Assembly: GCA_041946735.1 (NCBI GenBank)
Contig: JBHGAY010000015.1
Location: 16,170 to 80,169, forward strand
Length of the DNA: 64,000 nucleotides
Direction: 5' to 3'
Origin: Candidatus Eiseniibacteriota bacterium
GTDB lineage: Bacteria; Eisenbacteria; RBG-16-71-46; CAIMUX01; VGJL01
Of this stretch, positions 12,034 through 64,000 are shown one piece after another (the stretch's first letter is position 1; each line of letters begins with the position of its first letter). The translations under genes and the position numbers were made by a program. The notes beneath the pieces are model-generated. The model saw only the letters and a list, made by a program, of their open reading frames with translations. It was not told the origin of the DNA and searched no databases.

Positions 12034-13176
12034 TCACGCGGCAGCCCGGCGGGCGAGGACGCGCATCACCCGGCACTGATTGCGCAGCACGCGCTCCGCA
12101 TCGTAGCGCCGCGACGCCCGCAGCCCCTCCCGCCCCAGCGACGCGCGCAGCGCCTCGTCCTCGAGGATTCGCGAGAGCGCTCGATAGAGCGCGTTCACGT
12201 CGCCGGGCGGAACCAGCAAACCCTGCCGGCCGTCCTCGATCAGGTCGGTGTTCCCCGGGACGCGCGTCGCCACGATCGGAGTCCCGGACGCGAGCGCCTC
12301 GAGCACGATCTTCGGATTCCCCTCAGTCACGAGCGAGGGCAGGACGAGAACGAGCGCCGAGCCGAGATGCTGCGCGACCTCGTCCTGCGGGCGGCTGCCG
12401 AGGAATCGCACGCGCCGCCCGGGGACTTCTCGCTCCGCCTTGCGCTCCAGGCTCTCGTGCTCCTCCCCGGTGCCGAGGATCAAGAGCTCGACCCCGTCGC
12501 GCTCACGCGCGATCCGGCCGAATGCGTCGATCAAGAGGCCCACTCCCTTGCCGGGATGCAGGCGGCCGGCGTAGAGGATCGTGGGGCGCCGGTTTGGAGC
12601 GGGCCTGAACATTGCCCGATCGACCGGATTGGGAACGACGATCGCACGCCGTCCGTAGCCTCGTGTCGCCACCGAGGCGAGCAGGGGAGTTGTCGCGATC
12701 ACGAGGTCGGCGGCGAGGAGGCAACGGCTCTGCATGCGCGAGGCGAAGAGCTTCTTCGCGCCGCCGTAGTAGGCCTGCGTCGTCCGCGCCCAGTCGTAGC
12801 GGAGGTCGACCAGGAACTTGCCCCGGCCGCCCCCGCGGCGCTTCATTTCGGGAAGGACCGCGAGGTTCGAGCTGAGGACCCGCACGAGTCCCGACATGCG
12901 GTCGGCCGCCCGCACGAGGCGGCGATAGTAGATGAGGACCTCGAGCGGCCGCGGCAGCGCGGCGGGCAGTCCCGCGAGCAAGGGACGATGGTCCACCCCG
13001 AGCTCCACGCTGAACGAGCGAGCGTCGGCGCTGTAGAGGTCGACCGCGAACTCGTGGCTATAGGCGGCGAGCGTCTTCTTGAAGTAAGGCCCCATCCCGA
13101 GCCGCAGGATGTCCGCCACCGAGGCGTCGGTGCTCAAGACCAGATGGAGAGGAAGCTTTCGGACCGCCGGATTCAT
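12034..13176 (-). CDS. Glycosyltransferase family 4
   Basis: 380 aa starting MNPAVRKLPLH. GT4 C-terminal motifs VLPSLVTEGNPKIVLEALASGTPIVAT are present. Its ATG overlaps the Wzz stop. The N-terminal part of the track ORF 12034..14085 is rejected. Confidence 0.85.
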   Translation of the reverse strand: MNPAVRKLPLHLVLSTDASVADILRLGMGPYFKKTLAAYSHEFAVDLYSADARSFSVELGVDHRPLLAGLPAALPRPLEVLIYYRRLVRAADRMSGLVRVLSSNLAVLPEMKRRGGGRGKFLVDLRYDWARTTQAYYGGAKKLFASRMQSRCLLAADLVIATTPLLASVATRGYGRRAIVVPNPVDRAMFRPAPNRRPTILYAGRLHPGKGVGLLIDAFGRIARERDGVELLILGTGEEHESLERKAEREVPGRRVRFLGSRPQDEVAQHLGSALVLVLPSLVTEGNPKIVLEALASGTPIVATRVPGNTDLIEDGRQGLLVPPGDVNALYRALSRILEDEALRASLGREGLRASRRYDAERVLRNQCRVMRVLARRAAA

Positions 13177-31598: not shown

Positions 31599-32402
31599 GT
31601 GGACATTCTCAAGCGGGCTCTCGCTCCCATCACCGACCTCGCCTGGACCGAAATCGAAGCGGTCACTGCGAGCGCGCTTCGTACGCACATGATCGGCCGC
31701 CGGATCGTCGACGTCAGCGGACCCCACGGGTGGGACTTCGCCGCGATCGGTCTCGGCCGCCTGGACGTCGACCGGCAAAGCCTCGACGAGGTCTATTTCG
31801 GCGTCCATCAGGTGCAGCCGCTGGTCGAAGTACGTGTTCCCTTTTCGCTCGGGATCTGGGAGCTGGACAACGTGACGCGCGGCGCCGCCGACGTCGATCT
31901 GACGGCTGCGATCGACGCGGCGAAGCGGATCGCCGACTTCGAGGACGGCGCGATCTTCAACGGCTTCGAGAAGGCGAAGATCCAGGGTCTGCTTCACGCC
32001 TCTCCGCATCCCGCGATTGCCGTTCGACCGGACTCGGGGTCGCTCCTGGAGGGCGTTTCGAAGGCGCTCCTGGCGCTTCTCGACGCCGCGGTGCAAGGCC
32101 CCTACGTCCTCGTCCTCGGCCCGCGCCTCTTTCAGACGCTCGCCAACACTGCCTCCGGCTATCCGTTGCGCAAGCAGGTGGAGCAGCTCCTCGAAGGGAA
32201 AGCCATCTACCGGTCCGTGATCGAGGGAGGCGCGCTCGTCTCGAAGCGCGGGGGAGATCTGGAGCTCACGATCGGGCAGGACATCTCCCTCGGATATGAA
32301 TCACACGACACCAAACAGGTCCGCCTCTACCTGACCGAATCGTTCACGTTCCGGATTCTCGACCCTTCGGTCGCCGTACCGCTCACGCTCGCTTCCTCGT
32401 AG
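31599..32402 (+). CDS. Family 1 encapsulin nanocompartment shell protein (HK97 fold, linocin M18-like)
   Basis: GTG start 1 nt after the EncFtn stop, with AAGAGGAGG 5 nt upstream. MDILKRALAPITDLAWTEIE is the canonical encapsulin N-terminus. 267 aa. Confidence 0.85.
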   Translation: MDILKRALAPITDLAWTEIEAVTASALRTHMIGRRIVDVSGPHGWDFAAIGLGRLDVDRQSLDEVYFGVHQVQPLVEVRVPFSLGIWELDNVTRGAADVDLTAAIDAAKRIADFEDGAIFNGFEKAKIQGLLHASPHPAIAVRPDSGSLLEGVSKALLALLDAAVQGPYVLVLGPRLFQTLANTASGYPLRKQVEQLLEGKAIYRSVIEGGALVSKRGGDLELTIGQDISLGYESHDTKQVRLYLTESFTFRILDPSVAVPLTLASS

Positions 32403-35242: not shown

Positions 35243-38200
35243 TCACCGCGACGGACCGCCCGCCTCGACCGACCCCGATCGCGACACCGACCCGGATCGC
35301 GTAGCCGCCCCCGGTGATCGGGAGGCGCCGAGCAGTGCTGCGGCCTCCTCGACGACCGCCGAAGCGCCGCCGCGACGCTCTTCGCCTCCGCCTGCCGCCG
35401 CCGCGGCGGCCGCCCCGCTCCATCGCCGCAGCATCCCCTGGCTGTCCAGGTAGGCCTCGACGCGCGTCAGCATGCCTGCGTCGTTCGCGTGGCCGTCGAA
35501 CTGCAGGGTCAGGAAGGCGCGCCCGAAGGCGTCGCGGACGAAATGCTTGATGTAGGAGTCGGGGCCGCACTTGAAGTTCGTAATGTAAATGAGGTGGAGG
35601 CGCTCGCGGCGCGAGGCGACGATCGCCGCCGCGAGGATCTTCCTTCCATAGGCCCAGTACATGTTCGCATTGACCGCCTCGATGTCGGCGTCGCCGGAGG
35701 CGAGGAACTCGAGCGGCACCACGTTCGCCCCGTAGAGATCGCGGAGCTTGCGCGGCACGTCGAGGTTCACGACGGGGTCGAAGAGGTTGTACGGGCGGCC
35801 GGCCAGAAGGACGGCCGGCTCTCCGCTCGCATCCAGCTCCCGCATCGCCGTCTCGCCCGCCTCTCGAATCCTCCTCCGAAAGAGGGCGAGAGCCTCCTCA
35901 CCCGCGGCCAGGCCCCGCTTCACGGCCCCCTTCCGCACTCCATAGCGCCGGAGGGAATCGTGCAGCGGATCGACCAGCGCCCGCGGGCCGGCCTGGATGC
36001 GGAGTAGCGGGTGGACGATCCGTTTGGCCTGCGCCTCGAACCCGGCCGCCGCGCGCACGACGTAGGGGATCGTCATCCCCCAAGGACAGCAGAAGCTTTC
36101 GATCTCGTCGTGCGTCCGCTCTGTGTTGATCAGGTTCGGCAGGAAGACGAAGTCGGTCTCGGGCATTTCGAGCGCGAGCCGGACGTGGCCGTGGGCGACC
36201 TGGATCGGGAAGCAAGGCTCGGCGACCGCCGCCTCCACTCCATCGTGCGCGATCGATCGGTTCGTCTCCGGCGTCAGGCGGACCCCGAAGCCGGTCTCGC
36301 GCAGGAAGGCGTTCCAGAACGGAAACCGGTCGAAGAAGTAGAGGGAGCGCGGGAAGGCGACCGTGCCGCGTGGGCCGCTACCCGGCTCGTACCCCTCGAG
36401 GAGCCACTCCTTTCGCAACCGCACGAGATCGTCGATGACCGGCTCGTACTGGACCCGCGCCCGGCGCCTGTAGCGATCGCCGCACTGGTCGCCCCAGAAC
36501 GTCTTCTCTCCCTCGACCCGGAACTCCTGCATGTCGCAGCGGTTCTCGCACCCCTGGCACGTGAACTCCCGGATCCGGTAGTCGACGGTGCCGAGGTCCC
36601 ATCCACGGAACCGCGATGGCGCTCCGGAATCCGCGTTCGCCTTCTCCCAGGCGAGCAGGGCCGCGCCCACGGCTCCGACGACTCCGTTGTAGGGAGGGAC
36701 GATGATCTCCCGGTCGAGAATCTGCGCAAAAGCCGCTGCGACGGCGTCGTTGTAGGCCGTCCCCCCTTGGAAGAAGATCACGCCGTCGATCTTGCGGCCG
36801 CGCACGACGCGGTTGATGTAGTTCGTCGCGACCGAGAGAGCGAGTCCGGCCAGCAGATCCTCGGTCGACGCGCCACGCTGCTGGTAGGCGTTGACGTCCC
36901 GTTCCATGAAGACCGTGCAGCGTTCGCCGAGGCGCACGGGGGAGGTCGACGCGAGCGCCCGGCTCGCGAACTCCCCCTTGATGCAGACTCCCAGCTCCTC
37001 CGCCCGCTCCTCGAGGAACGACCCGGTGCCGGCCGCGCACGCTTCGTTCATCGCGAAGTCGACGACGATCCCGTCCTCGATGCGGATGTACTTCGCGTCC
37101 TGCCCGCCGATCTCGAAGATCGTATGGACCGGTGAGCCGAGCATCGTCCGCGCGATGAAGCTCGCGCCGGTCTTGTGAGCGGTGATCTCGTCGTTCACGG
37201 TGTCGGCGCCGACCAGCTCACCGATCAGCTCGCGACCCGAGCCGGTCGTCCCGACGGCCCGCACGGCGATCCGTTTTCCCAGCTCGCCGCGCAGCTCCGC
37301 GAGCGCCGCGGTGACGACCTCGATCGGCCGTCCCTGCGTGCGCGTGTAGATCTCGCGCACGATCTGGCCTTCGCGCGTCAGAAGAACCACGTTCGTGCTG
37401 ACCGACCCGATGTCGATTCCGAGAGCGACCTCGACCGGAGAGCCGTTCCCACTCGACGGCATCTCGTAAGGGAGCACGCGGTCCCGAAGCGCGATGACCT
37501 TGCCGAGGTCGAGCGGGCGGGCGCGCGGCATCGTGTCCGAGCCGAGGGACGCCTCCGACACTCGCTCCAGATCGAGAGGATGGTGCACGGCGTCGCTCGC
37601 TTCGAGGATTGCGCATCCGATCGCGGCATGCGCCGCGTGATGCTCCGGGACGATCAGGTCTTCGTCGAGATCGAAAACGTCGCGCAGCGCGCGCACCACC
37701 ATCCCATTGGCCGCGACCCCGCCGACGAGTAGAACCGGCGGCCGCGGGGTCCGTCCTTTCACTACGGCGGCTCGGAAGTTGCGCGCGACGGTTTCACAAA
37801 GTCCCCGGAGCACCTCCGGGGGCGAGTAGCCTTTCTGCTGCGCGTGGATCATGTCGCTCTTCGCGAAAACGGAGCAGCGCCCGGCGATCTTGGCGGCCCG
37901 CTCGCTCGCGAGCGCGATCGCGCCCAGCTCCTCGACCTCGTAGCGCAGTCGCCCTGCCTGCTGATCGAGGAACGAGCCGGTTCCGGCAGCGCAGTCTCCG
38001 TTGGTTGCGTAATCGGCGATCCCCAGCTCGCCCGATCCTGGGTCCCGCTCGAAGAAGAGCGCCTTCGAGGACTCCCCGCCGATTTCGAAGAGCGTCCGCA
38101 CCTCGGGTGCCAGGGCGCGCGTCGCCGCCGCGAGGCAGCGGAAGTCGTTCTCTTCCGGGATTCCGAAGCGCTCGCGAAGCAGGCGGGCTCCCGAGCCGGT

Positions 38201-38467
38201 CACACGGACCCCGTCGAACGCGCGGCCGCCGGCGCTCTCCCGTATCCGCTCCACGAGGAGCCGGGCGGCCTCGAGCGGACGTCCGTGGGTGCGCCGGTAG
38301 GTGGTGACGCGGAGAGATGCCGGCCCTCCGCCGGGAAGCTCGATATCGAGGAGGTCGGGGGACCAGAGATCCCCCGACGGCTCCTCGCGACGCTCCCGAT
38401 CCTCGCCGATCTTCAGCAGGGCGGCCTTGATGCTGACCGCGCCGATGTCGAGTCCCAAGTACAGCAA
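35243..38467 (-). CDS. CoA-substrate-specific enzyme activase: two tandem BadF/BadG/BcrA/BcrD-type ATPase domains plus a C-terminal DUF2229 domain
   Basis: Two ASKHA ATPase modules, each with LGIDIGxxS...EIGGxxxK...ACAAGTGSF motifs, are followed by about 470 aa of DUF2229 (CPWG, NFKCGPDS). A TTG start is proposed at 38467 with AGGAG 8 nt upstream. The first 45 aa of the track ORF are rejected. Confidence 0.75.
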   Translation of the reverse strand: MLYLGLDIGAVSIKAALLKIGEDRERREEPSGDLWSPDLLDIELPGGGPASLRVTTYRRTHGRPLEAARLLVERIRESAGGRAFDGVRVTGSGARLLRERFGIPEENDFRCLAAATRALAPEVRTLFEIGGESSKALFFERDPGSGELGIADYATNGDCAAGTGSFLDQQAGRLRYEVEELGAIALASERAAKIAGRCSVFAKSDMIHAQQKGYSPPEVLRGLCETVARNFRAAVVKGRTPRPPVLLVGGVAANGMVVRALRDVFDLDEDLIVPEHHAAHAAIGCAILEASDAVHHPLDLERVSEASLGSDTMPRARPLDLGKVIALRDRVLPYEMPSSGNGSPVEVALGIDIGSVSTNVVLLTREGQIVREIYTRTQGRPIEVVTAALAELRGELGKRIAVRAVGTTGSGRELIGELVGADTVNDEITAHKTGASFIARTMLGSPVHTIFEIGGQDAKYIRIEDGIVVDFAMNEACAAGTGSFLEERAEELGVCIKGEFASRALASTSPVRLGERCTVFMERDVNAYQQRGASTEDLLAGLALSVATNYINRVVRGRKIDGVIFFQGGTAYNDAVAAAFAQILDREIIVPPYNGVVGAVGAALLAWEKANADSGAPSRFRGWDLGTVDYRIREFTCQGCENRCDMQEFRVEGEKTFWGDQCGDRYRRRARVQYEPVIDDLVRLRKEWLLEGYEPGSGPRGTVAFPRSLYFFDRFPFWNAFLRETGFGVRLTPETNRSIAHDGVEAAVAEPCFPIQVAHGHVRLALEMPETDFVFLPNLINTERTHDEIESFCCPWGMTIPYVVRAAAGFEAQAKRIVHPLLRIQAGPRALVDPLHDSLRRYGVRKGAVKRGLAAGEEALALFRRRIREAGETAMRELDASGEPAVLLAGRPYNLFDPVVNLDVPRKLRDLYGANVVPLEFLASGDADIEAVNANMYWAYGRKILAAAIVASRRERLHLIYITNFKCGPDSYIKHFVRDAFGRAFLTLQFDGHANDAGMLTRVEAYLDSQGMLRRWSGAAAAAAAGGGEERRGGASAVVEEAAALLGASRSPGAATRSGSVSRSGSVEAGGPSR

Positions 38468-38649
38468 GAGAGGCGCTCCTGAACGGTCTCCCTGCCGCGC
38501 AGGTCGAGACCCGGCCGGTCCATACGAACGAGGGCGGCCAACCGGGGCTGAGAATACGTTCGGCCTGATGCGTTGGCAAGGACGCCCGACCGGTCGCCGC
38601 ATCGCAGCTCCATGCCCGCCGATGCCCGCCGGCGGGCCGTGTCAGGCCC

Positions 38650-43687: not shown

Positions 43688-43844
43688 CCCCGATTGACGC
43701 CCTTCCCCTGGGTTCCCTACTCTCTCCTTCGTTCGCATGCACGGCGCTGCGGCGCCAGGCCGGCTGCCCGCGATTCCTTTGGGGGCCGGGAGGGTCGGGT
43801 TGGAGTCAACCGCTTGCGGCGCAAGCGGTTCGAGGAGGTGGATC

Positions 43845-45026
43845 GTGAAGCGCAACGTCGTGTCGATGCCGGGAGACGGAATCGGGAAGGTCGTCCTCCC
43901 CGAGGCGATCCGAGTCCTGGACGCGGTCGGGTTCGAAGCGAACTACATCCATGGCGATATCGGCTGGGAGTTCTGGTGCAGCGAGGGCAACGCCCTCCCG
44001 GACCGGACCATCTCGCTCCTCGAGGAGCACAAGCTCGGCCTCTTCGGCGCGATCACGTCCAAGCCCAAGGACAAGGCGGAGGCGGATCTCTCGCCAGCGT
44101 TGAAGGGGAAGGGGCACGTCTACTACAGCCCCATCGTCACGATGCGGCAGAAGTTCGATCTCGACATCTGCATCCGCCCCTGCATCGCCTTCGAAGGCAA
44201 CCCGCTGAACTGGATCCGCAAGGACGGTCGCGGGAGCATCGAGGAGCCGAAGGTCGACGTCGTGATCTTCCGGCAGAACACCGAAGGGCTCTATAGCGGC
44301 ATCGAGTGGACGAACCCGCCCGAGAACGTCCGCGCCGCCCTCGCGAGCCATTCGAAGTGGAAGATGTACCAAAAGGTCGCAGGACCGGATCTCGCCGTGT
44401 CGACGCGCGTCATCACGCGCCCAGCCGCCGAAAGGATCTGCCGCAACGCGTTCGAGTACGCGAAGAAGTTCGGCTACAAGTCGGTGACGATCTGTGAGAA
44501 GCCGAACGTCCTTCGTGAAACCTCCGGGATGATGGAGTCCGTGGCGAAGCAGGTGGCGAAGGACTTTCCGGGCATCCCTCTCTGGTCGGTGAACATCGAC
44601 GCGCTCATGATGTGGCTCACGAAGAACCCCGAGGCGTACGGGGTGATCGTGGCGAGCAACATGTTCGGCGACATCATCAGCGACGGCTTCGCGGGATTGG
44701 TCGGCGGGCTCGGGTTCGCATGCAGCGGCAACATCGGCCGCAATTGCGCGGTCTTCGAACCGACCCACGGGTCCGCGCCGAAGTACGAGAAGCTTGATCC
44801 TTCGATCGTCAATCCGATCGCGATGATCCTTTCCGCGGTGATGATGCTCGAGCACGTCGGGGAGACCGCGAAGGCTTCGCGGATCAAGAGCGCGATCGCC
44901 GCAGTGATCCGCGAGGGGAAAGTCCGTACATACGACATGATGCGGCTCACGGGCGGCCCCGACGTGTTCGGGAAGGGCGCCGTGACCACGCAGCAGATGA
45001 CCGACGCAATCCTGGCACATCTCTAG
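43845..45026 (+). CDS. Isocitrate/isopropylmalate dehydrogenase-family beta-decarboxylating dehydrogenase
   Basis: GTG start with GAGGAGG upstream. The N-terminus is MPGDGIGKVV. The signature is NMFGDIISD, and the dimerisation and active-site Asp residues are present. About 393 aa. Confidence 0.75.
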   Translation: MKRNVVSMPGDGIGKVVLPEAIRVLDAVGFEANYIHGDIGWEFWCSEGNALPDRTISLLEEHKLGLFGAITSKPKDKAEADLSPALKGKGHVYYSPIVTMRQKFDLDICIRPCIAFEGNPLNWIRKDGRGSIEEPKVDVVIFRQNTEGLYSGIEWTNPPENVRAALASHSKWKMYQKVAGPDLAVSTRVITRPAAERICRNAFEYAKKFGYKSVTICEKPNVLRETSGMMESVAKQVAKDFPGIPLWSVNIDALMMWLTKNPEAYGVIVASNMFGDIISDGFAGLVGGLGFACSGNIGRNCAVFEPTHGSAPKYEKLDPSIVNPIAMILSAVMMLEHVGETAKASRIKSAIAAVIREGKVRTYDMMRLTGGPDVFGKGAVTTQQMTDAILAHL

Positions 45027-45138
45027 TCCATCGACCGTCTGTCGATCGATCGTCTATTGATCGTCCATCGATCGTCGTCCGTCGTCGTCGGGTCGTCGAC
45101 CGGCCGCTCTCCTCGGCCGGCAATGGGGGAGGTGGAGG

Positions 45139-46356
45139 ATGCCACACGCTGCCGAGGCGGGGCGCCGCGGAGCGGACGTTCGCTCGGACTGCTGGATCTC
45201 GATCACGCCCGAGTCCTCGGGCGGCGCGCGTCTCTCGATCCGGAGCAAGGTCGCTGCGATGTACGGAGGCGCAATCCAGGAGCAGATCGCGTCAGGGCTC
45301 GCGGAGCTTTCCATCCGTGACGCGACGGTCGAGGTCGAGGATGCCGGCGCGCTCCCGTGGGTCATCGCCGCTCGTCTGGAAGCGGCCGCCCGGCGCGCCT
45401 ACGGGCCAGCGCTTGCCGGGCGCCTGCTCCCTCCCGCGAGTCCCGGGGCGAGCGCGACGACGGAGCGGGAGCGCTTCCGGCGCTCGCGCCTCTACCTACC
45501 CGGCAACGAACCGAAGTTCATGGTCAACGCCGGCCTGCACGGCGCCGACGGCATCATCCTCGATCTCGAGGACTCGGTAGCGCCGGCCGAGAAGGACGCG
45601 GCGCGGCTCCTCGTCCGCAACGCGCTCCGGTCGGTCGACTTCGGCGCGTGCGAGCGGATGGTCCGGATCAACCAGCTGCCGATGGGCTTCGACGATCTCG
45701 AGGCGGTGATCCCGGAGAACGTCCACGTCGTCCTGATCCCGAAGTGCGAGTCGGCGCAGCACGTGCACGACGTGGAGGCGAAGATCCGGAGCCTCCGCCG
45801 CTCCGACGATCCGCAGGTCTTCCTGATGCCGATCCTCGAGACGGCGCTCGGAGTCTTGAACGCCTTCGAAATCGCGACGGCGAGCCGGGCGATCGTGGCA
45901 CTGACGATCGGACTGGAGGACTACACGGCGGACATCGGGACCGCGCGCACCGAGCAGGGAGCGGAGTCGCTGTGGGCACGCTCGATGGTGATCAACGCCG
46001 CGCGCGCGGCCGGCGTCGCCCCGATCGACAGCGTCTACTCGGACGTGATGAACACCGAGGGGCTGCGGGCGAGCGTCCTCGAGGCGAAGGCGCTCGGGTT
46101 CGAGGGGAAGGGCTGCATCCATCCCGGGCAGATCCGCGTGATCCACGAGGGGTTTGCCCCTACCGCGGCCGAGATCGAGCGGGCGACGAAGATCGTTCGC
46201 GCGTTCGAGGATGCCGAGGCGAAGGGGCTCGGGGTGGTGTCGCTCGGAAGCAAGATGATCGACGCCCCGGTCGTGAAGAGGGCGAACCGGACGGTTCGCC
46301 TCGCGATCCGCTCGGGGAAGCTCGCGGAGGGCTGGAGGGACGCGCAGCAGGCGTGA
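45139..46356 (+). CDS. Fusion of citrate lyase acyl-carrier subunit (CitD) and citrate lyase beta subunit (CitE, HpcH/HpaI citryl-CoA lyase)
   Basis: The N-terminal 95 aa are CitD-like (RSDCWISI around the prosthetic-group Ser; IAARLEAAARRA). A Pro/Ala linker follows, then CitE (RRSRLYLPGNEPKF...LDLEDSV...PKCES...LETALGV...IGLEDYTADIG). No internal start codon separates the two. The RBS is GGAGGTGGAGG. Confidence 0.7.
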   Translation: MPHAAEAGRRGADVRSDCWISITPESSGGARLSIRSKVAAMYGGAIQEQIASGLAELSIRDATVEVEDAGALPWVIAARLEAAARRAYGPALAGRLLPPASPGASATTERERFRRSRLYLPGNEPKFMVNAGLHGADGIILDLEDSVAPAEKDAARLLVRNALRSVDFGACERMVRINQLPMGFDDLEAVIPENVHVVLIPKCESAQHVHDVEAKIRSLRRSDDPQVFLMPILETALGVLNAFEIATASRAIVALTIGLEDYTADIGTARTEQGAESLWARSMVINAARAAGVAPIDSVYSDVMNTEGLRASVLEAKALGFEGKGCIHPGQIRVIHEGFAPTAAEIERATKIVRAFEDAEAKGLGVVSLGSKMIDAPVVKRANRTVRLAIRSGKLAEGWRDAQQA

Positions 46357-46414
46357 ATCGGCTCGCGGCCGGCTGCCCGCAGGGGGGGAGGGGCCGGAGG
46401 GGGAGAGGGAAGCG

Positions 46415-47974
46415 ATGGCGCAGAAGCTGGTCAAGAATGCGGTAGGTCGGGAAGTCCCGGTCGAGATCAACGGAGAGCCTGCGGTCGCCTACCAGGGGGT
46501 CGGGAAAGACCGGCCGTCCGGACGGCGCGCGGCGCCGCCGATCGCCACCTGCGCGGACTATCCGGCCGACGGGAACAAGATCGTGCCCGATCTGCGCGCG
46601 GCGCTCGAGAAGGCCGGGCTGCGCGACGGGATGACGATTTCGACGCACCACCACTTCCGCAACGGCGACCTGGTCGGGAACCGCGTGTTCGACATCGCGG
46701 CCGAGATGGGCGTGAAAGACCTGCGGTGGTTCCCGAGCGCCTCGTTCCCTTGCCACGCGCCGATGATCCGGCATCTCGAGAGCGGCGTGATCCATCACAT
46801 CGAGGGGTCGATGAACGGTCCGCTCGGCGACTACACCTCGCAGGGGAAGATGCGCGGCATGGCGGTGCTCCGCTCGCACGGCGGCCGCTATCAGGCGATC
46901 CAGGACGGCGAGGTCCATGTCGACATCGCCGTCATCGCGGCGCCGGAGGCCGACCCGTTCGGCAACGCGAACGGCCTCCATGGCCCATCAGCCTGCGGCG
47001 GCCTCGGGTTTGCCGTTGCCGACGCGGAGTACGCCGATCGCGTCGTGGTCGTCACCGACAACCTGGTCCCGTTCCCGTGCGTGCCGTGGCAGATCAGCGG
47101 CAACCGCGTCGACTCGGTCGTCGTCGTCGACCGGATCGGCGACCCGGCGCAGATCGTCTCCGGGACGACGCAGATCACCCGCAGCCCGGACCGGCTGCTG
47201 ATCGCCGAGATGGTCGCCCGCTTCCTGGACGCGTCCGGGATTCTGCGCGATGGCTTCTCCTTCCAGGCAGGGGCCGGCGGGACGGCACTCGCCTTCGCGA
47301 TCTACCTAAAGGAGATGATGAAGGAGCGGGGGATCCGGGCCCGCTTCATCCGGGGAGGCTCGACGAAGTACCTGGTCGAGATGCTCGAGGAGGGGTTGAC
47401 CGATTACATCCTCGACGGGCAGACCTTCGACCTCTTCGGCGTGCGCTCGATGGGGACGAACCCGCGCCACGTGAACACGACGCCGTTCACCTCCTACAAC
47501 TATCACGGCAAGGGGAACTTCGCCTCGATGGTCGACGCGGTCGTGCTCGGAGCGACGGAAGTGGACGTCCACTTCCACGCGAACGTCGTCACCCACTCCG
47601 ATGGCCGCCTGCTCCACGGAATCGGTGGATGGCAGAACTGCCTGTTCTCCGGATGCACGATCCTCGCGCTCCCTTCGTTCCGCGATCGCATCCCGGTGAT
47701 CCTCGATTCCGTGACCACGTTGTGCGGCCCCGGCGAGCTGATCGACGTGATCGTCACGGAGCGCGGGATCGCGATCAATCCGCGCCGGACCGACCTGCTC
47801 GATGCCGTCCGTGGAAGCGATCTCCCGATCCGCATGATCGAGGAGATCCAGGCGGACGTCGACCGGATCTGCGGCGGGCGCCCGACGAAGGCGAGGATGG
47901 GGGAGAAGGTCGTCGCGGCGATCAAGTGGGTCGACGGGACGGTGATCGACTCGGTGAGGCAGGTGCTCGCGTAG
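46415..47974 (+). CDS. citF: Citrate lyase alpha subunit (citrate CoA-transferase, CitF)
   Basis: 519 aa with CitF-family motifs throughout (DGMTISTHHHFRNGD, SMNGPLGDY, GGWQNC). It lies immediately downstream of the citDE fusion. Confidence 0.8.
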   Translation: MAQKLVKNAVGREVPVEINGEPAVAYQGVGKDRPSGRRAAPPIATCADYPADGNKIVPDLRAALEKAGLRDGMTISTHHHFRNGDLVGNRVFDIAAEMGVKDLRWFPSASFPCHAPMIRHLESGVIHHIEGSMNGPLGDYTSQGKMRGMAVLRSHGGRYQAIQDGEVHVDIAVIAAPEADPFGNANGLHGPSACGGLGFAVADAEYADRVVVVTDNLVPFPCVPWQISGNRVDSVVVVDRIGDPAQIVSGTTQITRSPDRLLIAEMVARFLDASGILRDGFSFQAGAGGTALAFAIYLKEMMKERGIRARFIRGGSTKYLVEMLEEGLTDYILDGQTFDLFGVRSMGTNPRHVNTTPFTSYNYHGKGNFASMVDAVVLGATEVDVHFHANVVTHSDGRLLHGIGGWQNCLFSGCTILALPSFRDRIPVILDSVTTLCGPGELIDVIVTERGIAINPRRTDLLDAVRGSDLPIRMIEEIQADVDRICGGRPTKARMGEKVVAAIKWVDGTVIDSVRQVLA

Positions 47975-49170: not shown

Positions 49171-50403
49171 CTACATCTTCTCGGCGTGCTCCCCTTGCGC
49201 CTGCGCCTGCGGTTGGGCCGGACCCTTGCCTTCGAGCAGGTAGGCGATCTCCGCGTCGAGCGTCTCCTCGCCTCCCTCGGCGAAGCCGAGATGGCGGAAG
49301 ATCACCCGCCCGTCGCGATCGATGACGAGGTTGTACGGCACGCCCTCGAGCGAGTAGAGGTCGTGCATCTTCTTGTCGACATCGAGAACGATCGGGAAGG
49401 TCGCGCCCACCTTCTGCACGAACTCCCTTGCGAGCTGCGGGCGGTTGGTGGTCTCCACCGAGAGGATCGTGAAGTCGTCGCCGCCGCGCCGCGCGTAGAT
49501 CTGCTGCAGGTGTGGATACTCCACACGGCAGGCGCCTCAGGTCGGATGCCAGAAGTTCAGCAGCACGACCTTCCCGCGAAGCGATGAGAGCGACAACGGC
49601 GTGCCGTCGGCGAGGGTCGGAAGGGTGAAGTCCGGGGCTTCGAATGCGTTCGCAGCGCGCGTCGCTTGGATCGAAGCATCGACATCCGCCATTGATTCGC
49701 CCTTCTCCGCGACGATCTTCTCCAGATTCTGCCGGAGCTTCGGGCTCTCCTGATGCCCGAGCAATGCGACGTAGATCTCGCGCGCCTCGTCGTCCCGTCC
49801 GGCCGCATCGAGGATCAGCGCGGCGTGCTCCTCGATCTCGTCGATCGGCTGGCCGTAGATCTTGCGCGCCTCGAGAATCGGTTCGGCCGCCGCCGCGGCG
49901 TCTCCCTTCTTGTAGAGAGCCCATGCATAACTGTCGAGCACCGAGGCGATGCCGTTGGAGTCCCCCTCCGCCCGCGCCTTCGCGACCCCCTTCTCGAGGA
50001 TCGGAACCGCGAGGTCGAGATGCTGCTCGCGCTCGGCGAGATCCCAGCCGACCGAGTTGTAGGGCGCGGCCGAAGGGAAGTCAGTCTTCAGGAACTGCTG
50101 CAAGGTAGATTGCACCGACTCGGGTCGATGCTCCAGCTCGAGGGGGACGAGTCGCGCATACGCCTCCGCCGCCTGCTCGCTGTGAGGATGCTCCTTCAGA
50201 AACTGCTCGAGCGCCGCCATCCTGGCCGATTCGTCTTCGAGGCCGGCCGCTTGTGCGTATACCGCGCTGTCGGCAGCCGCACTGCCCGTTCCGCCCGCCG
50301 TTCGGTTCTCCCCGGAGCAACCGGCGAAGAGCGGGACAGCGAGCAGAGTCGTGAGCGCGGCCCCGACGATCCATCTCCATTGTTCGACACGCGTCATTTC
50401 CAC
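49171..50403 (-). CDS. TlpA/ResA-like thiol:disulfide oxidoreductase lipoprotein with a TPR-like N-domain; a candidate selenoprotein with in-frame TGA at 49537-49539 (U-G-A-C motif), or alternatively a pseudogene
   Basis: Two track ORFs, 49537..50403 and 49171..49524, are in the same frame and separated only by a TGA. Read through it gives ...KVVLLNFWHPT-U-GACRVEYPHLQQIYARRGGDDFTILSVE..., which is the thioredoxin-fold W-C-x-x-C motif with its first Cys codon replaced by UGA. A 7-bp-stem hairpin GUGUGGA-GUA-UCCACAC lies 10 nt downstream with G and U in the apical loop, which is bSECIS-like. Confidence 0.55.
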
Positions 50404-50776
50404 CTCTCGTTTTGTTGCCTTCGACAGCGTCCCGTAGCAGGTCCCGACGCCACCGGCCGGCCGTTACGAACCTGGCATTCTAGCCGCTTCCTCGCGCTCC
50501 CGTCATCCGATCCTTCCGCGAATCGGCCGAGACGGATGACTCGGACGTTCCTGCTCTCCGGTCTTTGAACCGGGTTCGCGGTTGCCGGGAGGAGTTTCTT
50601 CCCGGGTGGGTGAAATCGTATCGCTCCCGCGCGCGCTTCGCGGTCGCGTGACGCTGCCAGGGAAAGAGACACGTGCCACAGACCGGCAAGAAGAGCGCCA
50701 GACCTTCTCGGGAAGGCCTGGCGCGAGGTTGCTCGAGTGTTGGAAGGAGGGTGGGTGGGGGTCAGTGAACTCCTTG

Positions 50777-58735: not shown

Positions 58736-59986
58736 TTACCTCTGCGCCATCGGAATGTACGGCGACGAGATCGGTCCCACGTACACCGCCCGCGGCCGGA
58801 AGATGCGGTTGTCCTGCAAGTACTCGAGCGACCGCGCGGTCCATCCCGCGACTCGGCTCACCGCGAAGATCGGGGTGAACATGGCGGTCTCGATCTCCAT
58901 CGCTCGATAGATCAATCCGGAATAGAAGTCCACGTTCGGGAAGATCTTCTTCTCGCCGAGCTGGCCGCAGAGGAGGGAGTCGAGCTTCTCGGCGACCTGA
59001 TAGAGGCGCTTCACCTCCGGATTGCGGTCGGCGAGCAGCCGGGCGATCGGACCGAAGATCCGGGCGCGTGGATCGTACGCCTTGTAGACGCGGTGCCCGA
59101 ATCCCATGACGCGCCGCTTCGACTCCATCGCCTTGCGGAACCAGGGTTCCACGTTCTCCGGAGTCCCGATCTCCTCGAGATCGTAGAGAACCCGTTCGTT
59201 CGCGCCGCCGTGGAGTGGGCCCTTCAGGCTCGCGATCCCTGCCACGACGCTCCCGTACATGTCGGAGAGCGAGGAGTTCACGACCATCGTCGCGAAGGTC
59301 GAGGCGTTCATCCCGTGGTCCGCGTGAAGGATCAGGGAGATGTCCATCGTCCTCTCGATGACCGGATCGGGCTTCTGCCCGGTCATCATCCACAGCAGGT
59401 TGCCGGCGTGGCTCAGGGTCGGATCGGGCGGGAGCGGCTCCTTCCCTTTGCGGATGCGGGCGATCGCGCCGGTGATCGTCGCGAGTTGCGCGATCATCCG
59501 GATCGCGATCTGCTGCTCGTATTCGACCGACGTGTCGTCCGCGCGTGGGTCGAGGTTGCCTTCGACGGAGGCGCAGGTGCGCAGCGTGGACATCGGGTGG
59601 GCCTTGGCGGTCGGCACGATCTCGAGAATCTTCTTCGCCTCGGGCGCCATCGGCGCCGCCGCCCGGATCTTGGCGACGAAGCCGTCGAGCTCCACCTTCG
59701 TCGGAAGGTGGCCGTACAGGAGCAGGAAGGCGGTCTCCTCGTAGGTGGAGTATTCCGCGAGGTCGAAGATGTTGATGCCCCGATAGACGAGCCATCCCTT
59801 CGCCCCGTTGACGTAGCCGACCTCGGTGTCGCAAGCCGGCGCCCCCTCGAGCCCCTTGCCGATCTTCGCGTCGATCGGCCATTCGTGAGCGCCGGTGCGC
59901 TGCGGCTCGGGCTCGTCGCTCGTCTCCTGGAGCGCCTTCTCCTTCGCCGCCCTCACCAGTTCCTGAAGGTCATGCGTGCTCGTCAT
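58736..59986 (-). CDS. gltA: Citrate synthase
   Basis: 416 aa starting MTSTHDLQELV with GAGGAAGGA as the RBS. The signature is GFGHRVYKAYDPRA, and the catalytic His/Asp context is present. The upstream part of the track ORF is rejected. Confidence 0.85.
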   Translation of the reverse strand: MTSTHDLQELVRAAKEKALQETSDEPEPQRTGAHEWPIDAKIGKGLEGAPACDTEVGYVNGAKGWLVYRGINIFDLAEYSTYEETAFLLLYGHLPTKVELDGFVAKIRAAAPMAPEAKKILEIVPTAKAHPMSTLRTCASVEGNLDPRADDTSVEYEQQIAIRMIAQLATITGAIARIRKGKEPLPPDPTLSHAGNLLWMMTGQKPDPVIERTMDISLILHADHGMNASTFATMVVNSSLSDMYGSVVAGIASLKGPLHGGANERVLYDLEEIGTPENVEPWFRKAMESKRRVMGFGHRVYKAYDPRARIFGPIARLLADRNPEVKRLYQVAEKLDSLLCGQLGEKKIFPNVDFYSGLIYRAMEIETAMFTPIFAVSRVAGWTARSLEYLQDNRIFRPRAVYVGPISSPYIPMAQR

Positions 59987-60114
59987 CGGGTCCTTCCTCG
60001 CAACGGGCGGCGCGCGCCGCCCGGCATCAGGGTCTTTCGGCCGACTCCTACGAACGGGAGGATCACCTATACTCCGCTCCTGGGTAGTGCCGCGACCCCG
60101 AGGACGGAGGACCA

Positions 60115-63100
60115 TTGGAGAAGCCGCCGACACCGACCGTCGCCCACCAGGTGACGGATGCGGCTCGGGACCTGGCCCATGCCTTTCGGGACACCGCCAG
60201 TCGCAACCGAACGCTCGAGGATACCATTCCGGAACGCGTGATCGCAGCCGTCGTGGAGACGGCCTCGGCGCATGCGCGGCTGCCGTCCGGGGCCGAGGAG
60301 GCGGAAGTTCGCAGCCTCCTGCTCGACCTCCTCGAGGCCGGCCGCACCCCAGCCTTTCTCCGCCGGATCGCCGGCACCCCGCTCGCCGACCGCTGGCTCG
60401 AAGCGGTGCTCGGCGCCCTCGACGCGGCCGCCATCTCCCTCGGGGATCTCCTGCAGCAGCGGGCGGCCCGGACGCCCGACCGCACCTGGATCCGGGTGCC
60501 GCGCGCCAACGGTTGGGACGACGTGACCTGGGGGGAGGCCGAGGAGCGCGTCGCCGCGATCGCCCGCGGCCTGCGCGAGGAGCTGCCCGAACGGCCGGGC
60601 GCGGTCCATGTCGCAATCCTCGCCCCGAACCGCCTGGAGACGATCCTCGCCGACGTGGCCTGCCTGACGCACGGAATCGTCGACGTGCCGATCTCGTCGG
60701 ACTCCACGCCCGATCAGGTGCGCTTCATCCTCGAGCAGACCGCCCCTCCGATCCTCCTCGTGTCCGATCGAGCGCGGCTCGATGCGGTGCTTTCGGCCGG
60801 ACCGCTGCCGGCGGTGCGGACCGTCCTCTTGATGGACGAGCCGGAGGGGGACCCTCCGGTGGAGCATTGGCTGCTGCTCCGCGAGATCGAGGAGCGGGGA
60901 AGGAGCCTGGGGAGGCTTCCGCTCCCCCGGATCGCGCCGCGCGCCCTCGCCACGCTGCTCTATACCTCCGGCACGACCGGGCAGCCGAAGGGCATCCGCT
61001 TCTCGCAGCGCAACATCGTCTACAAGCGCTTCTGCAGGGCGGTCGCGATTCCGGAGATCGGCGAGGACGACACCTTCCTTTGCTACCTGCCGCTGTTCCA
61101 CACATTCGGCCGATGGCTCGAGATGACCGGGACGCTCTTCTGGGGAGCGACCTACGCGATGATGGAGAATCCGTCGGTCGAGACAATGCTGGCGCGGATG
61201 GCGCTCGCGCGCCCGACCGTCTTCATCTCGATCCCGAAGCGCTGGATCCAGCTTCACGAGCGGATCATCCAAGTCGCGGGCGGCACGATGGAGGAACGCG
61301 AGGAGATTCCCGCGGCGCGCCTGGACGACGCCACCGAGGCTGTCACCGGCGGCCGCCTCCGGTGGGGGCTATCGGCCGCCGGACATCTCGACACGGAGGT
61401 CTTCCTCTTCTTCCAGAAGCGGGGGATCGAGCTTCTGAGCGGCTTCGGGATGACCGAGGCGACCGGGGGAATCACGATGACCCCTCCGGGGCAGTATCGC
61501 CGCGGCACCGTCGGAAAGGCCCTCCCGGGAATCGAGGTGCGGCGAGCGGAGGACGGCGAGCTGCTCGTGCGGGGTCCCTACCTGATGCTCGGCTACAACG
61601 ACCCGGACGCCGGAGATCGCGACTACGAGGCGGATTGGTTCGCGACCGGCGACATCGTGCGCGAGGACGAAGACGGCTATTACACGATCGTCGACCGCAA
61701 GAAGGACATCTACAAGAACGTCAAGGGACAGACGATCGCGCCGCAGAGGATCGAGAACCTTTTCGATGAGTTCGAGGAGGTGAAGCGCAGCTTCCTGGTC
61801 GGCGACGGGCGGGAGTACAACACGCTCCTGCTCTATCCGGACTACGAGGCGGCCGGCGGCAAGCTGAAGCGCATGAGCGCGGAGGATCTGCGGGAGTACC
61901 TCTCCTCCTTCGTCGTCTCCGTCAATCGCTTCCTCGCCCCGTACGAGCGCGTGGTTGCCTTCGACCTCCTCCCCCGCTACTTCCGCGAGGACCGCGGCGA
62001 GCTGACACCGAAAGGGACGTTCGTCCGGAAGGTCGTCGAGAAGAGCTTCTCCGAGCTGATCGAGTCGCTCTACGCGCGGCCGTACGTGACCGTGACGACG
62101 CAGGGGATCGACGTGCGCGTGCCGAGCTGGCTGCTTCGCGAGAAGGGCCTCACGCCGGATTCGGTCAGCGCGGAACCGGGCGGGATTCGCCTGCGCCCGG
62201 GCGGAGAGCGGCTGACCATCGCGCGCATTCCCGGCGCTCCGGGGCGCTATCGCGTCGGGACCTTCACCTACCGGATGGAGAGCGAGGAGCGCGCGGCGGC
62301 GCCGCTCGCCGCTCCGCTCGTCGACCTCGACCGCATCCTGGCGATCGCCTCGCTCTGGGCCGGCAACCTCGAGCTGTCCCGCTTCGTCGGGGAAGGAAGG
62401 CCGAGGCGGCCGCGCACGGCGCAAGGCGGCGGCCCGCGGATCTCGATCGAGGGATGGCACCGGCCGACCCTCCTGGTCGACTTCGCGCGCGAGACGCTGG
62501 GGCGCGCCCGCGCGAAGGGAGCCACCGGGGCTGCCCTCGTCCACGCGCTGGCCGGCGCGCTGTTCGCGACGCAGGGCTCGGACGCGCTCGATGCGCTCGC
62601 CTCCTTGCGCAAGCTCCTGCAGGATCCCGCGGCAGAGGAGGCTGCGCTCGCCCGCGCGATCCTCCCGTTGCTTCGGACCCATCCGGATGCGGCCGTCCGC
62701 TCGGCGGCTCTCGCGATCCTGCTGCCCGGCGAGGTGGACGAGCGCGCCGCCGAGACGCTCGCGAGCTTCCTCGAAGTCGATGCGGACGTCTTCTCGCCCG
62801 AAGTGCGCGCGCGCGCGCTCGAGCACGAGATCACTCCGGCCGCCCTGCGATCGATCCTCCGCCTCGGCGCGTCCCTCGAAGTCCCGGCCGGACAGCCTTG
62901 GGCGGCCGGCCCCGCCCGGCGCCGGATCGAGTCCATCCTTCGCTTCTGTGTGGAGACGGCCGAGCAGTTGCCTCGCTGGTATGCGATCGTCCGACAGCTC
63001 CTGGCGGGCCGCTCCATGCAGGAGCGCGACGCGGACGTCCGCGCGCTCGCCCTCTCGCTGCGCGAGCGGCTCGACGAGCGTTTCCGGTCCTGGATCGAGT

Positions 63101-64000
63101 GGGGACGAACGAGCCCGACCGATCCGGAGACCGGCAAGCCGATCGGCTGGGATCGCGTCCTCGGCTTCGACGAGCGAGTGGAACCCGAGGTGCGGGAGCG
63201 CCTCCGCGACGCGCTCGCCGAGACCACCCTTCTGCGCGAGTCGATCTTCCTGCTCGCGGACGGAACGCTCCTCTCCGGCGGCGATCTCCTTCCGGGGGGG
63301 ATTTGGGTGAGCCACCTCGGAGCCGGCCACGGAAAGACGGTCGTCCGTCTCATCGTGTCGACGCGAGGCGGCCGGACGCACGAGTTCGTCGTCAAGATCC
63401 TGCGCGAGATCCGACCCGAGGAGGCGCGCGAGGAAGCGGACTGGCTGATCCGGCTCGGCTCGTTCGATCGAGCCGTCCGGCTCGTCGCCGATTTCGGAGG
63501 CTATTGGCCGGAGCGCGGGATCTGGTCCGAGGAGTACATCAGCGGCGAGACGGTGCGGAACAACCTCACGCGGATCGCGGCGCATCCTGACGAGGAGCGG
63601 CGGCAACGCCTGTCGAGCAGCTGGCCGCACGTCGCCTGGTCGGCCCTGGCGACGTTCGTCGAGTTCTGGCAGCGGACGGGGCGCAAGCTGATCCTTGCCG
63701 AGCCGACGCCGGAGAACATCGTCGTCGCCCCGCACGACTACCAGGAAGGCTCGCGCCTCGTCTCGATCACCTCCCGCCTGCCGTTCCAGGGGATCGCGTC
63801 GATGCTGCGCCGCCAGCACGAGACGTTCCTCGATCCGGTGCATGCGCAGTTCCCGGAGCTCGCCTCGGGGGCGCCGCGCCGCACGAGCTTTTCCGCCTTC
63901 CTGGAAGCGGTCGGGGAGACGACCGGCTTGGCGCTGCTCTGGCGCGCGCTTGGCGAGATGAAGGAGAAGCTGCTCGCCGGAGACCCGTCCTGGCAGCCCT
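60115..64000 (+). CDS. Long-chain acyl-CoA synthetase-like protein (AMP-binding) with an open C-terminal extension of 690 aa or more; it runs off the window end
   Basis: The frame (mod 1) differs from the track ORF 59976..61769, which is rejected. A TTG start lies at 60115 with GGAGG upstream. The AMP-binding motif is LLYTSGTTGQPKG at about 60958. Motifs YGMTEATGG and GDIVREDEDGYYTIVDRKKD follow. There is no stop codon before 64000. The sequence after residue about 600 is Ala/Leu/Arg-rich and helical with no recognised family. Confidence 0.7.
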   Translation, partial: MEKPPTPTVAHQVTDAARDLAHAFRDTASRNRTLEDTIPERVIAAVVETASAHARLPSGAEEAEVRSLLLDLLEAGRTPAFLRRIAGTPLADRWLEAVLGALDAAAISLGDLLQQRAARTPDRTWIRVPRANGWDDVTWGEAEERVAAIARGLREELPERPGAVHVAILAPNRLETILADVACLTHGIVDVPISSDSTPDQVRFILEQTAPPILLVSDRARLDAVLSAGPLPAVRTVLLMDEPEGDPPVEHWLLLREIEERGRSLGRLPLPRIAPRALATLLYTSGTTGQPKGIRFSQRNIVYKRFCRAVAIPEIGEDDTFLCYLPLFHTFGRWLEMTGTLFWGATYAMMENPSVETMLARMALARPTVFISIPKRWIQLHERIIQVAGGTMEEREEIPAARLDDATEAVTGGRLRWGLSAAGHLDTEVFLFFQKRGIELLSGFGMTEATGGITMTPPGQYRRGTVGKALPGIEVRRAEDGELLVRGPYLMLGYNDPDAGDRDYEADWFATGDIVREDEDGYYTIVDRKKDIYKNVKGQTIAPQRIENLFDEFEEVKRSFLVGDGREYNTLLLYPDYEAAGGKLKRMSAEDLREYLSSFVVSVNRFLAPYERVVAFDLLPRYFREDRGELTPKGTFVRKVVEKSFSELIESLYARPYVTVTTQGIDVRVPSWLLREKGLTPDSVSAEPGGIRLRPGGERLTIARIPGAPGRYRVGTFTYRMESEERAAAPLAAPLVDLDRILAIASLWAGNLELSRFVGEGRPRRPRTAQGGGPRISIEGWHRPTLLVDFARETLGRARAKGATGAALVHALAGALFATQGSDALDALASLRKLLQDPAAEEAALARAILPLLRTHPDAAVRSAALAILLPGEVDERAAETLASFLEVDADVFSPEVRARALEHEITPAALRSILRLGASLEVPAGQPWAAGPARRRIESILRFCVETAEQLPRWYAIVRQLLAGRSMQERDADVRALALSLRERLDERFRSWIEWGRTSPTDPETGKPIGWDRVLGFDERVEPEVRERLRDALAETTLLRESIFLLADGTLLSGGDLLPGGIWVSHLGAGHGKTVVRLIVSTRGGRTHEFVVKILREIRPEEAREEADWLIRLGSFDRAVRLVADFGGYWPERGIWSEEYISGETVRNNLTRIAAHPDEERRQRLSSSWPHVAWSALATFVEFWQRTGRKLILAEPTPENIVVAPHDYQEGSRLVSITSRLPFQGIASMLRRQHETFLDPVHAQFPELASGAPRRTSFSAFLEAVGETTGLALLWRALGEMKEKLLAGDPSWQP

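Follow-up and report, generated by a model that had tools for sequence, protein, structure and literature searches.

A metagenome-assembled genome (MAG) of Candidatus Eisenbacteria carries, within a 64-kb stretch of a 130-kb contig (the window, about 68% G+C), a citrate-lyase-like module in which an acyl-carrier-protein (ACP)-like domain is fused to the lyase subunit and lacks the canonical attachment serine. The module lies on three closely spaced open reading frames (ORFs) of the + strand, at 43737/43845..45026, 45139..46356 and 46415..47974; the NCBI gene calls for the source MAG have the same coordinates (MFB3908723-25) and read 'isocitrate/isopropylmalate dehydrogenase family protein' (MFB3908723.1), 'aldolase/citrate lyase family protein' (MFB3908724.1) and 'citrate lyase subunit alpha' (MFB3908725.1). 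The first gene encodes a beta-decarboxylating dehydrogenase of the isocitrate/isopropylmalate family (43845..45026, 393 aa; Pfam Iso_dh, 3.5e-77). The second joins an N-terminal domain of the CitD/MdcC fold (residues ~1-90, 45139..45408; Pfam ACP PF06857 over residues 16-87, 1.9e-17) through a linker that reads as Pro/Ala/Gly-rich (residues ~89-111, AYGPALAGRLLPPASPGASATTE; 45409..45471 for residues ~91-111) to a CitE-type acyl-CoA/acyl-ACP lyase domain of the HpcH/HpaI fold (residues ~112-405, 45472..46356; Pfam HpcH_HpaI over residues 115-329, 6e-54). The third gene encodes a CitF-type (family II) CoA/ACP-transferase of 519 aa (46415..47974; Pfam CitF, 6e-139). Identities to the E. coli proteins are 33% for CitD, 40% for CitE and 39.5% for CitF. 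No terminator-like sites were found between the three genes, and a single transcription unit is the best explanation of the arrangement.

A preliminary description of the window had noted the fusion with its Pro/Ala linker followed by CitF, the family of the upstream gene, the absence of citC, citX and citG from the window and a citrate synthase 12 kb away, and all four points hold on closer analysis. The citrate synthase homologue lies at ~58775-59854 on the - strand, ~11-12 kb from the lyase genes (tblastn with E. coli GltA, E 4e-63; 34.5% identity). Beside it, a multidomain gene of the AMP-binding (acyl-CoA synthetase-like) type, coding for more than 1300 aa, occupies 60088-63999 (+) and runs past the window end. 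The window holds no aconitase-family or MmgE/PrpD homologue; only the dehydrogenase stands beside the lyase genes.

The fusion and its carrier loop

The fused architecture is ancient and widespread. An ACP-like plus HpcH fusion of ~405 aa occurs in all 119 best-matching clusters from other sources (62-75% identity), and a scan of one genome per GTDB species found it at full length, matching query residues ~1-400, in 80 of 80 loci. The hosts of these loci include Acidobacteriota/Terriglobia, Gemmatimonadota, Myxococcota, KSB1, Sumerlaeota, Planctomycetota, Fibrobacterota, Krumholzibacteriia, WOR-3, Armatimonadota and one Chromatiales MAG. An exhaustive search of 50%-identity representatives follows full-length fusions down to ~36% identity, and altogether the architecture is common to hundreds of clusters from at least 10 phyla. 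Because it is conserved on this scale, a frameshift or assembly artefact, raised earlier as a possible source of the fusion, is ruled out; nor do the close relatives have separate citD and citE genes, all of them being fused. In soil metagenomes the Terriglobales version by itself takes up all of the best 120 matches, at 80% identity or more.

The 50%-identity representatives also contain triple fusions of the form CitF-ACP-CitE. Two of the proteins (P0155 and P0220) are single polypeptides of ~930 aa with CitF, the ACP-like domain and CitE, and in a Myxococcales MAG one ORF of 925 aa (L012:10006-12780) encodes an ACP-CitE-CitF fusion. These single-polypeptide forms show a trend towards complete fusion of the complex.

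What has become of the carrier serine? In CitD of E. coli and K. pneumoniae, Ser14, within the loop A-G-T-L-E-S14-G/S-D, is the attachment site of 2'-(5''-phosphoribosyl)-3'-dephospho-CoA. The window loop R15-S16-D17-C18-W19 (45181..45195, +) is the counterpart of E. coli E13-S14-G15-D16-V17, and MAFFT alignments of the family with E. coli CitD set Arg15 against Ser14, Ser16 against position 15 and Asp17 against the invariant Asp16. Three hidden Markov model (HMM) matches give the same register (Pfam, 16 to 12; TIGR01608 and PRK13253, 15 to 14), with which the HMM start coordinates of a canonical-type fusion, P0224, also agree. An example is the fusion P0144, whose loop reads A-G-R-L-E-R-G-D-V against A-G-T-L-E-S-G-D-V in E. 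coli. At position 15 of the canonical loop E. coli has Gly, P0224 Ser and P0163 Asn; since the residue varies in this way, the position is not the canonical attachment site, and it is here that the window protein has its Ser16.

The wider family follows the same pattern. Among 61 representatives of the divergent fusions, the Ser14 column holds Arg in 33, Lys in 23 and Ser in 3, and the column after it Ser in 20, Gly in 15, Asn in 10, Ala in 9 and Gln in 4, so that 40 of the 61 have no serine at either loop position. Variants with Gly or Ala at position 16 remain paired with CitF. The Asp of the loop is present in 61/61, but only this Asp17 and Arg79 reach 90% conservation or more, and the ACP-like domain therefore contains no universal nucleophile. 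On the evidence of these alignments we regard the domain as degenerate, its canonical prosthetic-group serine replaced by arginine. It is nevertheless under constraint: mean identity among close relatives is 59% in the ACP-like domain, 36% in the linker and 76% in CitE, the linker being the least conserved segment, with 9% mean identity in distant relatives. Cys18, considered as an alternative thiol carrier, is rejected as a general mechanism, as a cysteine occurs in only 34/61 divergent fusions and the column holds Leu, Val or Ala in most operons of Acidobacteriota and Gemmatimonadota.

The divergence extends to all three modules, each of which falls under its NCBIfam trusted (equivalog) cutoff. 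The CitD part scores 54.5 bits on TIGR01608 (cutoff 63.5), the CitE domain 296.5 bits on TIGR01588 (cutoff 443.4) and CitF 499.1 bits on TIGR01584, just below its cutoff of 501.45 and with clear membership of Pfam CitF. The serine-bearing fusion P0163, which we used for comparison, reaches 90.8 bits for CitD and 411 for CitE, and its CitF partner 746. The window protein thus departs from a CitD gamma subunit both in the Ser14 column and in its TIGR01608 score. Nor does the CitE domain belong to any characterised malyl-, citramalyl- or beta-methylmalyl-CoA lyase equivalog of NCBIfam; it scores 166.9 bits on the RipC_Ccl model (cutoff 375) and 64.7 bits on the haloarchaeal malyl-CoA lyase model (cutoff 500). 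With E. coli CitE it has in common the catalytic motifs D-L-E-D-S, L-E-T and E-D-Y. In a rough neighbour-joining tree of CitE domains, built without support values, the serine-bearing fusions cluster with the CitE of E. coli and with the majority of the stand-alone CitE proteins, and the Arg/Lys fusions fill separate large clades, the window domain lying outside the E. coli CitE clade. The nearest solved structures are 5ugr, 5vxc, 1sgj and 1z6k for the CitE domain; solved relatives of CitF are 2hj0 and 1xr4.

Serine-bearing fusions from metagenomes (P0163, P0224) share with the window the ACP-HpcH fusion followed by CitF, and the P0163 lineage likewise has a linked Iso_dh gene and an aconitase-family gene. 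Unlike the window module they keep the canonical loop A-G-x-x-[ED]-S-x-D, exceed the cutoffs for CitD (90.8 against 63.5) and CitF (746 against 501), and are accompanied by a dehydrogenase with the classical S-x-N loop of isocitrate dehydrogenase (IDH). A low-GC lineage (L090:97-6505 and L091) presents the order LysR, classical IDH (S-A-N loop), serine-bearing ACP-CitE, canonical CitF and a YbhJ-type aconitase-family hydratase (PRK11413, 911 bits). To judge from its sequences, this lineage apparently has a genuine fused citrate lyase that is likewise linked to a dehydrogenase and a hydratase.

Operon partners and accessory genes

Neighbouring genes in the relatives were clustered from longest-ORF calls with SEG filtering and coverage thresholds. 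CitF lies directly downstream of the fusion in 67/86 loci; in 56 of the 86 this is combined with a dehydrogenase directly upstream and co-oriented, and in 11 more the dehydrogenase is within 4-8 kb. The preliminary description had treated the IDH-like gene as a flank of the lyase genes. The neighbour is there, but its role was underestimated: it is a conserved operon partner across phyla, in many bacteria of soil and sediment, and not a chance neighbour.

In Acidobacteriota, Gemmatimonadota and Krumholzibacteriia the module is part of a larger operon with the order HDIG, MmgE/PrpD-family, aconitase-family, dehydrogenase, ACP-CitE and CitF (examples among L020-L087, such as L049:4266-12900, and L099:4381-12768). 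Independent gene calls with precomputed Pfam hits back this six-gene operon and show housekeeping genes around it (fmt, def, aroC). Complete chromosomes with the operon include OY970265.1, OY970281.1 and CP070716.1. A second aconitase-family gene stands in for the MmgE/PrpD gene in Myxococcota, WOR-3 and some other groups, and KSB1 and Zhuqueibacterota have the lyase pair only. The aconitase-family protein of the operon passes the NCBIfam homoaconitase equivalog TIGR00139 (756 bits, cutoff 530), and its nearest relatives in the PDB are homoaconitase (methanogen large subunit, 228 bits) and then isopropylmalate/citramalate isomerase (212 bits). The swivel-domain loop of the aconitase family (YLRT versus YLVY in methanogen enzymes) gives no call of the substrate, as its sequence is a different one in the fused Lys4-type enzyme. 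The MmgE/PrpD member is divergent and closer to iminodisuccinate (IDS) epimerase and bacterial IRG1 than to 2-methylcitrate dehydratase.

The dehydrogenase forms a distinct subfamily, its specificity loop matching neither IDH nor the homoisocitrate dehydrogenase (HICDH) of Thermus. The loop T-S-K-P...Y-[YF]-S-P-I-V-x-M-R-Q is invariant in 65 operon-linked homologues, S-P-I-V included, and is preceded by an 11-residue insertion. The Ser-x-Asn loop of IDH (E. coli Ser113/Asn115) binds the gamma-carboxylate of isocitrate; when the window enzyme is aligned to A. fulgidus IDH (2iv0), its Ser is kept and its Asn replaced by Ile. Arg85 of Thermus HICDH, which recognises the distal carboxylate, is replaced by Val (alignment to 1x0l). 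Among NCBIfam models the best matches are homoisocitrate dehydrogenases, at 277 bits against a cutoff of 540, and on every IDH equivalog model the score falls far short of the cutoff. Of solved structures, NAD-IDH 6lky and Thermus HICDH 1x0l come closest.

The genes that make and attach citrate lyase's prosthetic group are missing from every locus covered. In the 64-kb window, tblastn with the E. coli proteins found no CitC, CitX or CitG (best E 0.11), and Pfam scans of every window ORF supported by G+C at third codon positions (GC3) found none either. Phmmer searches with E. coli seeds detected none of the three in 86 related loci of +-10 kb, and none is present in the Pfam-labelled surroundings of the Zhuqueibacterota, KSB1, Eisenbacteria and Terriglobales loci or in those of three divergent lineages of the Gly/Ala type. 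Together these negatives cover ~100 loci from at least 10 phyla. In E. coli, citC, citD, citE, citF, citX and citG are adjacent; of the accessory genes, citX codes for the holo-ACP synthase, citG for the synthase of the prosthetic-group precursor and citC for the acetate:SH-ACP ligase.

Several other genes near the lyase pair deserve mention. In KSB1 and Zhuqueibacterota, citF is followed, 400-570 bp downstream, by a conserved 91-aa gene (L001:13169-13444, L003:13352-13627, L008:~12801-13160); its product has no Pfam match, and we rejected it as a hidden CitD for want of any similarity. In Eisenbacteria a large gene for two fused BcrAD/BadFG ATPase domains and DUF2229, of the CoA-enzyme activase type, recurs in synteny ~5-8 kb upstream of the lyase genes (35243-38641 (-) in the window, also L006:1-2178), and in the KSB1 locus L003 a component of 2-hydroxyacyl-CoA dehydratase (HGD-D) lies ~9.6 kb downstream of the fusion gene. 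Divergent ACP-CitE and CitF pairs whose loop position holds Gly or Ala stand beside GH127 (beta-L-arabinofuranosidase-like) glycosidases (L096:8141-12125, L098:1165-5491), in operons that also hold ABC transporters, an ADP-ribosylglycohydrolase and a beta-lactamase-fold protein, a context unlike that of the window.

Reading of the module and its rivals

How might such a module work? The closest known system is the citrate (pro-3S)-lyase CitDEF of E. coli and K. pneumoniae (EC 4.1.3.6), with homologous alpha, beta and gamma-like modules in the order D-E-F, the same CitE catalytic motifs and presumably the same two-step chemistry of acyl exchange followed by Claisen-type cleavage. The window module differs in the fusion of gamma to beta, the change of Ser14 to Arg, the lack of citC, citX and citG nearby and the below-cutoff scores of all three modules, and also in its company: CitDEF operons hold citrate transporters, oxaloacetate decarboxylase or a CitAB regulator, those of the fusion clade a dehydrogenase and, elsewhere, a homoaconitase-type hydratase and an MmgE/PrpD protein as well. 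The clade is clearly homologous to citrate lyase, yet its aligned loop lacks the carrier serine, and its metabolic context is different. The earlier suspicion that the module is non-canonical is sustained by the scores, the Ser14 to Arg15 change and the absence of local accessory genes.

The reading we favour, although we would put its chances at about even, is that of a citrate-lyase-like pair of CoA-transferase and acyl-CoA lyase that acts independently of a prosthetic group on citrate or a close homologue. The CitF-like subunit would serve as a CoA-transferase converting acetyl-CoA and a tricarboxylate to acetate and tricarboxylyl-CoA, and the CitE domain would cleave this thioester to acetyl-CoA and a 2-oxoacid. 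Free acetyl-CoA would then cycle catalytically in place of acetyl-S-ACP, and CitX, CitG and CitC would therefore not be needed. The ACP-like domain without its attachment serine would most likely be a tethered adaptor coupling lyase to transferase. Candidate substrates are citrate or close homologues such as homocitrate or citramalate, and the neighbouring beta-decarboxylating dehydrogenase may be coupled to the reaction metabolically, as may, in most other phyla, the homoaconitase-type hydratase and the MmgE/PrpD-family enzyme of the same operon. Stand-alone CitE-like lyases of the same HpcH/HpaI TIM-barrel fold (M. tuberculosis CitE/Rv2498c, human CLYBL, Mcl, RipC/Ccl) use free CoA thioesters without an ACP, the mechanism proposed here, though they have neither the CitF partner nor the ACP-like domain of the window enzyme. 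A precedent in vitro comes from transferases of the CitF/MdcA family, which accept CoA esters in place of ACP (PMC9813914).

Several observations weigh against this reading. Ser16 is conserved in 118/118 close homologues and the motif [RK]-S-D in 77/79 orthologous operons, and the flexible Pro/Ala-rich linker is a feature expected of a swinging carrier domain. The accessory-gene searches take in a 64-kb stretch of the MAG and, in the relatives, +-10 kb, the 80 genome loci having been screened with single E. coli sequences whose sensitivity is limited for the short CitX. To our knowledge, canonical CitF and CitE have shown activity with free CoA in vitro only. In K. pneumoniae, moreover, citX stands at a separate locus, so that accessory genes can be unlinked (PMC2735749).

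These same points make an ordinary ACP-dependent citrate lyase, merely fused, the main rival, because Ser16 is so conserved in the window's subgroup and because the searches covered loci rather than whole genomes. On this account Ser16 would be an attachment site shifted by one residue, citX, citG and citC would lie elsewhere in the genome, and citrate would be fermented or cleaved to acetate and oxaloacetate as in the classical enzyme. Within the window's own ortholog group Ser16 could indeed be such a site, given its conservation there. CitF, which almost reaches its equivalog cutoff, and the serine-bearing fusion lineage of P0163 and P0224 also speak for a classical enzyme. Yet it is Arg15 and not Ser16 that occupies the attachment column in the MAFFT alignment and in all three HMM registers, the position of Ser16 is filled by Gly in E. 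coli CitD and by Asn in the canonical-type P0163, one intact orthologous operon has R-A-D (L077), and sister clades with Gly, Ala or Asn retain CitF. The CitD and CitE scores are well under the trusted cutoffs, and accessory genes are absent throughout the ~100 loci, while citC and citG are operon-linked in enterobacterial systems (PMC2735749). The change of Ser14 to Arg15 speaks against a plain fusion of ordinary function, and we consider this rival unlikely overall. The same replacement tells against a lyase for a different acyl-ACP substrate, which the preliminary description had entertained.

A second rival reverses the direction of the pair, making it a thioester-conserving synthase in 2-oxoacid chain elongation. 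CitE would join acetyl-CoA to a 2-oxoacid, for instance 2-oxoglutarate to give homocitryl-CoA, CitF would hand the CoA to acetate without ATP, and the dehydratase, hydratase and dehydrogenase of the operon would yield the elongated 2-oxoacid, such as 2-oxoadipate. The composition of the Acidobacteriota/Gemmatimonadota operon suits this, since it holds the remaining steps: a hydratase that passes TIGR00139 and is nearest to the methanogen homoaconitase large subunit, and a dehydrogenase whose best models are homoisocitrate dehydrogenases. There is no separate synthase gene in the Pfam-labelled operon context, the setting among fmt, def and aroC fits biosynthesis, and the window organism already has a normal citrate synthase, so that the module is not simply its replacement. 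In most phyla the arrangement as a whole resembles the known elongation modules (homocitrate synthase (HCS), homoaconitase and HICDH; isopropylmalate synthase (IPMS), isomerase (IPMI) and dehydrogenase (IPMDH); citrate synthase, aconitase and IDH) in combining a C-C enzyme, one or two enzymes of the dehydratase/hydratase kind and a beta-decarboxylating dehydrogenase, but here the C-C step would fall to a lyase and CoA-transferase pair and not to an enzyme of the LeuA/HCS or citrate synthase type. Energetics are less kind to the idea: by a general thermodynamic estimate, not a computation, formation of a tricarboxylate from acetate and a 2-oxoacid lies near 0 kJ/mol under standard conditions, so that cleavage is favoured at millimolar levels. 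Every characterised CitDEF-type enzyme is catabolic, the dehydrogenase is without the distal-carboxylate Arg85 of Thermus HICDH, the MmgE/PrpD member resembles IDS epimerase and IRG1 more closely than any dehydratase, and in the window only the dehydrogenase adjoins the lyase genes. We regard synthesis as distinctly improbable.

The clues to the substrate conflict. CitE and CitF are most like citrate lyase and the hydratase passes the homoaconitase model, which points to a tricarboxylate; the hydrophobic loop of the dehydrogenase points to a side chain without a carboxylate. The latter would accord with citramalate or another 2-alkylmalate as substrate, in a module of the citramalate lyase type whose dehydrogenase acts on products of the 3-methylmalate or D-malate type. 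Where IDH has Asn and HICDH Arg, the window loop has hydrophobic Ile-Val, which resembles isopropylmalate dehydrogenase. For the CitE domain, RipC/Ccl (citramalyl-CoA lyase) ranks second among the NCBIfam models, and isopropylmalate/citramalate isomerase is nearly as close to the operon hydratase as homoaconitase (212 against 228 bits). Citramalate lyase, too, has the alpha/beta/gamma organisation of citrate lyase (PMC9196870). Set against this are the 296 bits of the CitE domain on citE compared with 167 on RipC/Ccl, in a comparison whose models include no authentic citramalate lyase, the closeness of CitF to the citrate lyase alpha cutoff, the homoaconitase equivalog match of the hydratase, which implies a tricarboxylate, and, in the dehydrogenase, the retained IDH-type Ser together with conserved Lys residues (T-S-K-P) that could bind a distal carboxylate. 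A citramalate-type substrate seems to us a rather poor prospect.

The favoured scheme, a free-CoA transferase and lyase pair, can be extended by a bolder proposal, which we think is probably wrong but worth stating. In it the clade would be a citrate lyase without a cofactor tether: the Arg or Lys would take the place of the covalent serine link and bind free (acetyl-)CoA without a covalent bond, on an ACP-like domain that would still be mobile, and with its operon partners the module would form a previously unrecognised, ATP-independent, thioester-conserving pathway. If true, this pathway would convert a 2-oxoacid and acetate into CO2 and the next-higher 2-oxoacid, and back (2-oxoglutarate and 2-oxoadipate, for example, or oxaloacetate and 2-oxoglutarate), and it would belong to the core metabolism of the soil-dominating phyla Acidobacteriota, Gemmatimonadota and their relatives. 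Citrate lyase is a textbook case of an enzyme dependent on a covalent CoA-like prosthetic group and three dedicated helper enzymes; on the favoured scheme the clade, which keeps all three structural modules, would show how a tethered-cofactor machine can revert to the free cofactor.

Such genes also matter for annotation. The fusion clade, with Acidobacteriota, Gemmatimonadota, Myxococcota, Eisenbacteria and KSB1 among its phyla, is phylogenetically broad and reaches very high abundance in soil metagenomes. Public annotations of its proteins are generic, and a full-text literature search brought up no paper that describes the serine-less fusions as a clade or their operon. Automated pipelines label the genes 'citrate lyase', which may feed the inference of citrate fermentation or of a reductive tricarboxylic acid cycle in MAGs. 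The operon linkage hints at uncharacterised central carbon metabolism in abundant soil bacteria that are among the least cultivated.

Further features of the window

Two further genes of the window are of note. At 49171-50463 (-), a gene combining TPR and a thioredoxin fold (TlpA/Redoxin-like) has an in-frame TGA at 49535-49537, in the place of the first Cys of a CxxC motif (F-W-H-P-T-U-G-A-C-R-V-E-Y-P). A 7-bp hairpin, GUGUGGA-GUA-UCCACAC, begins 11 nt downstream of the TGA; its fold z-score of -0.77 is not significant alone. TGA and hairpin are kept in two Eisenbacteria relatives (L006 at ~13150, UGAC; L007 at ~13183, UGPC), where the gene is annotated as two, and by its sequence the protein is likely a selenocysteine-containing redoxin. 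The second gene, at 31599-32402 (+), encodes an encapsulin shell protein (Linocin_M18, 2.6e-82).

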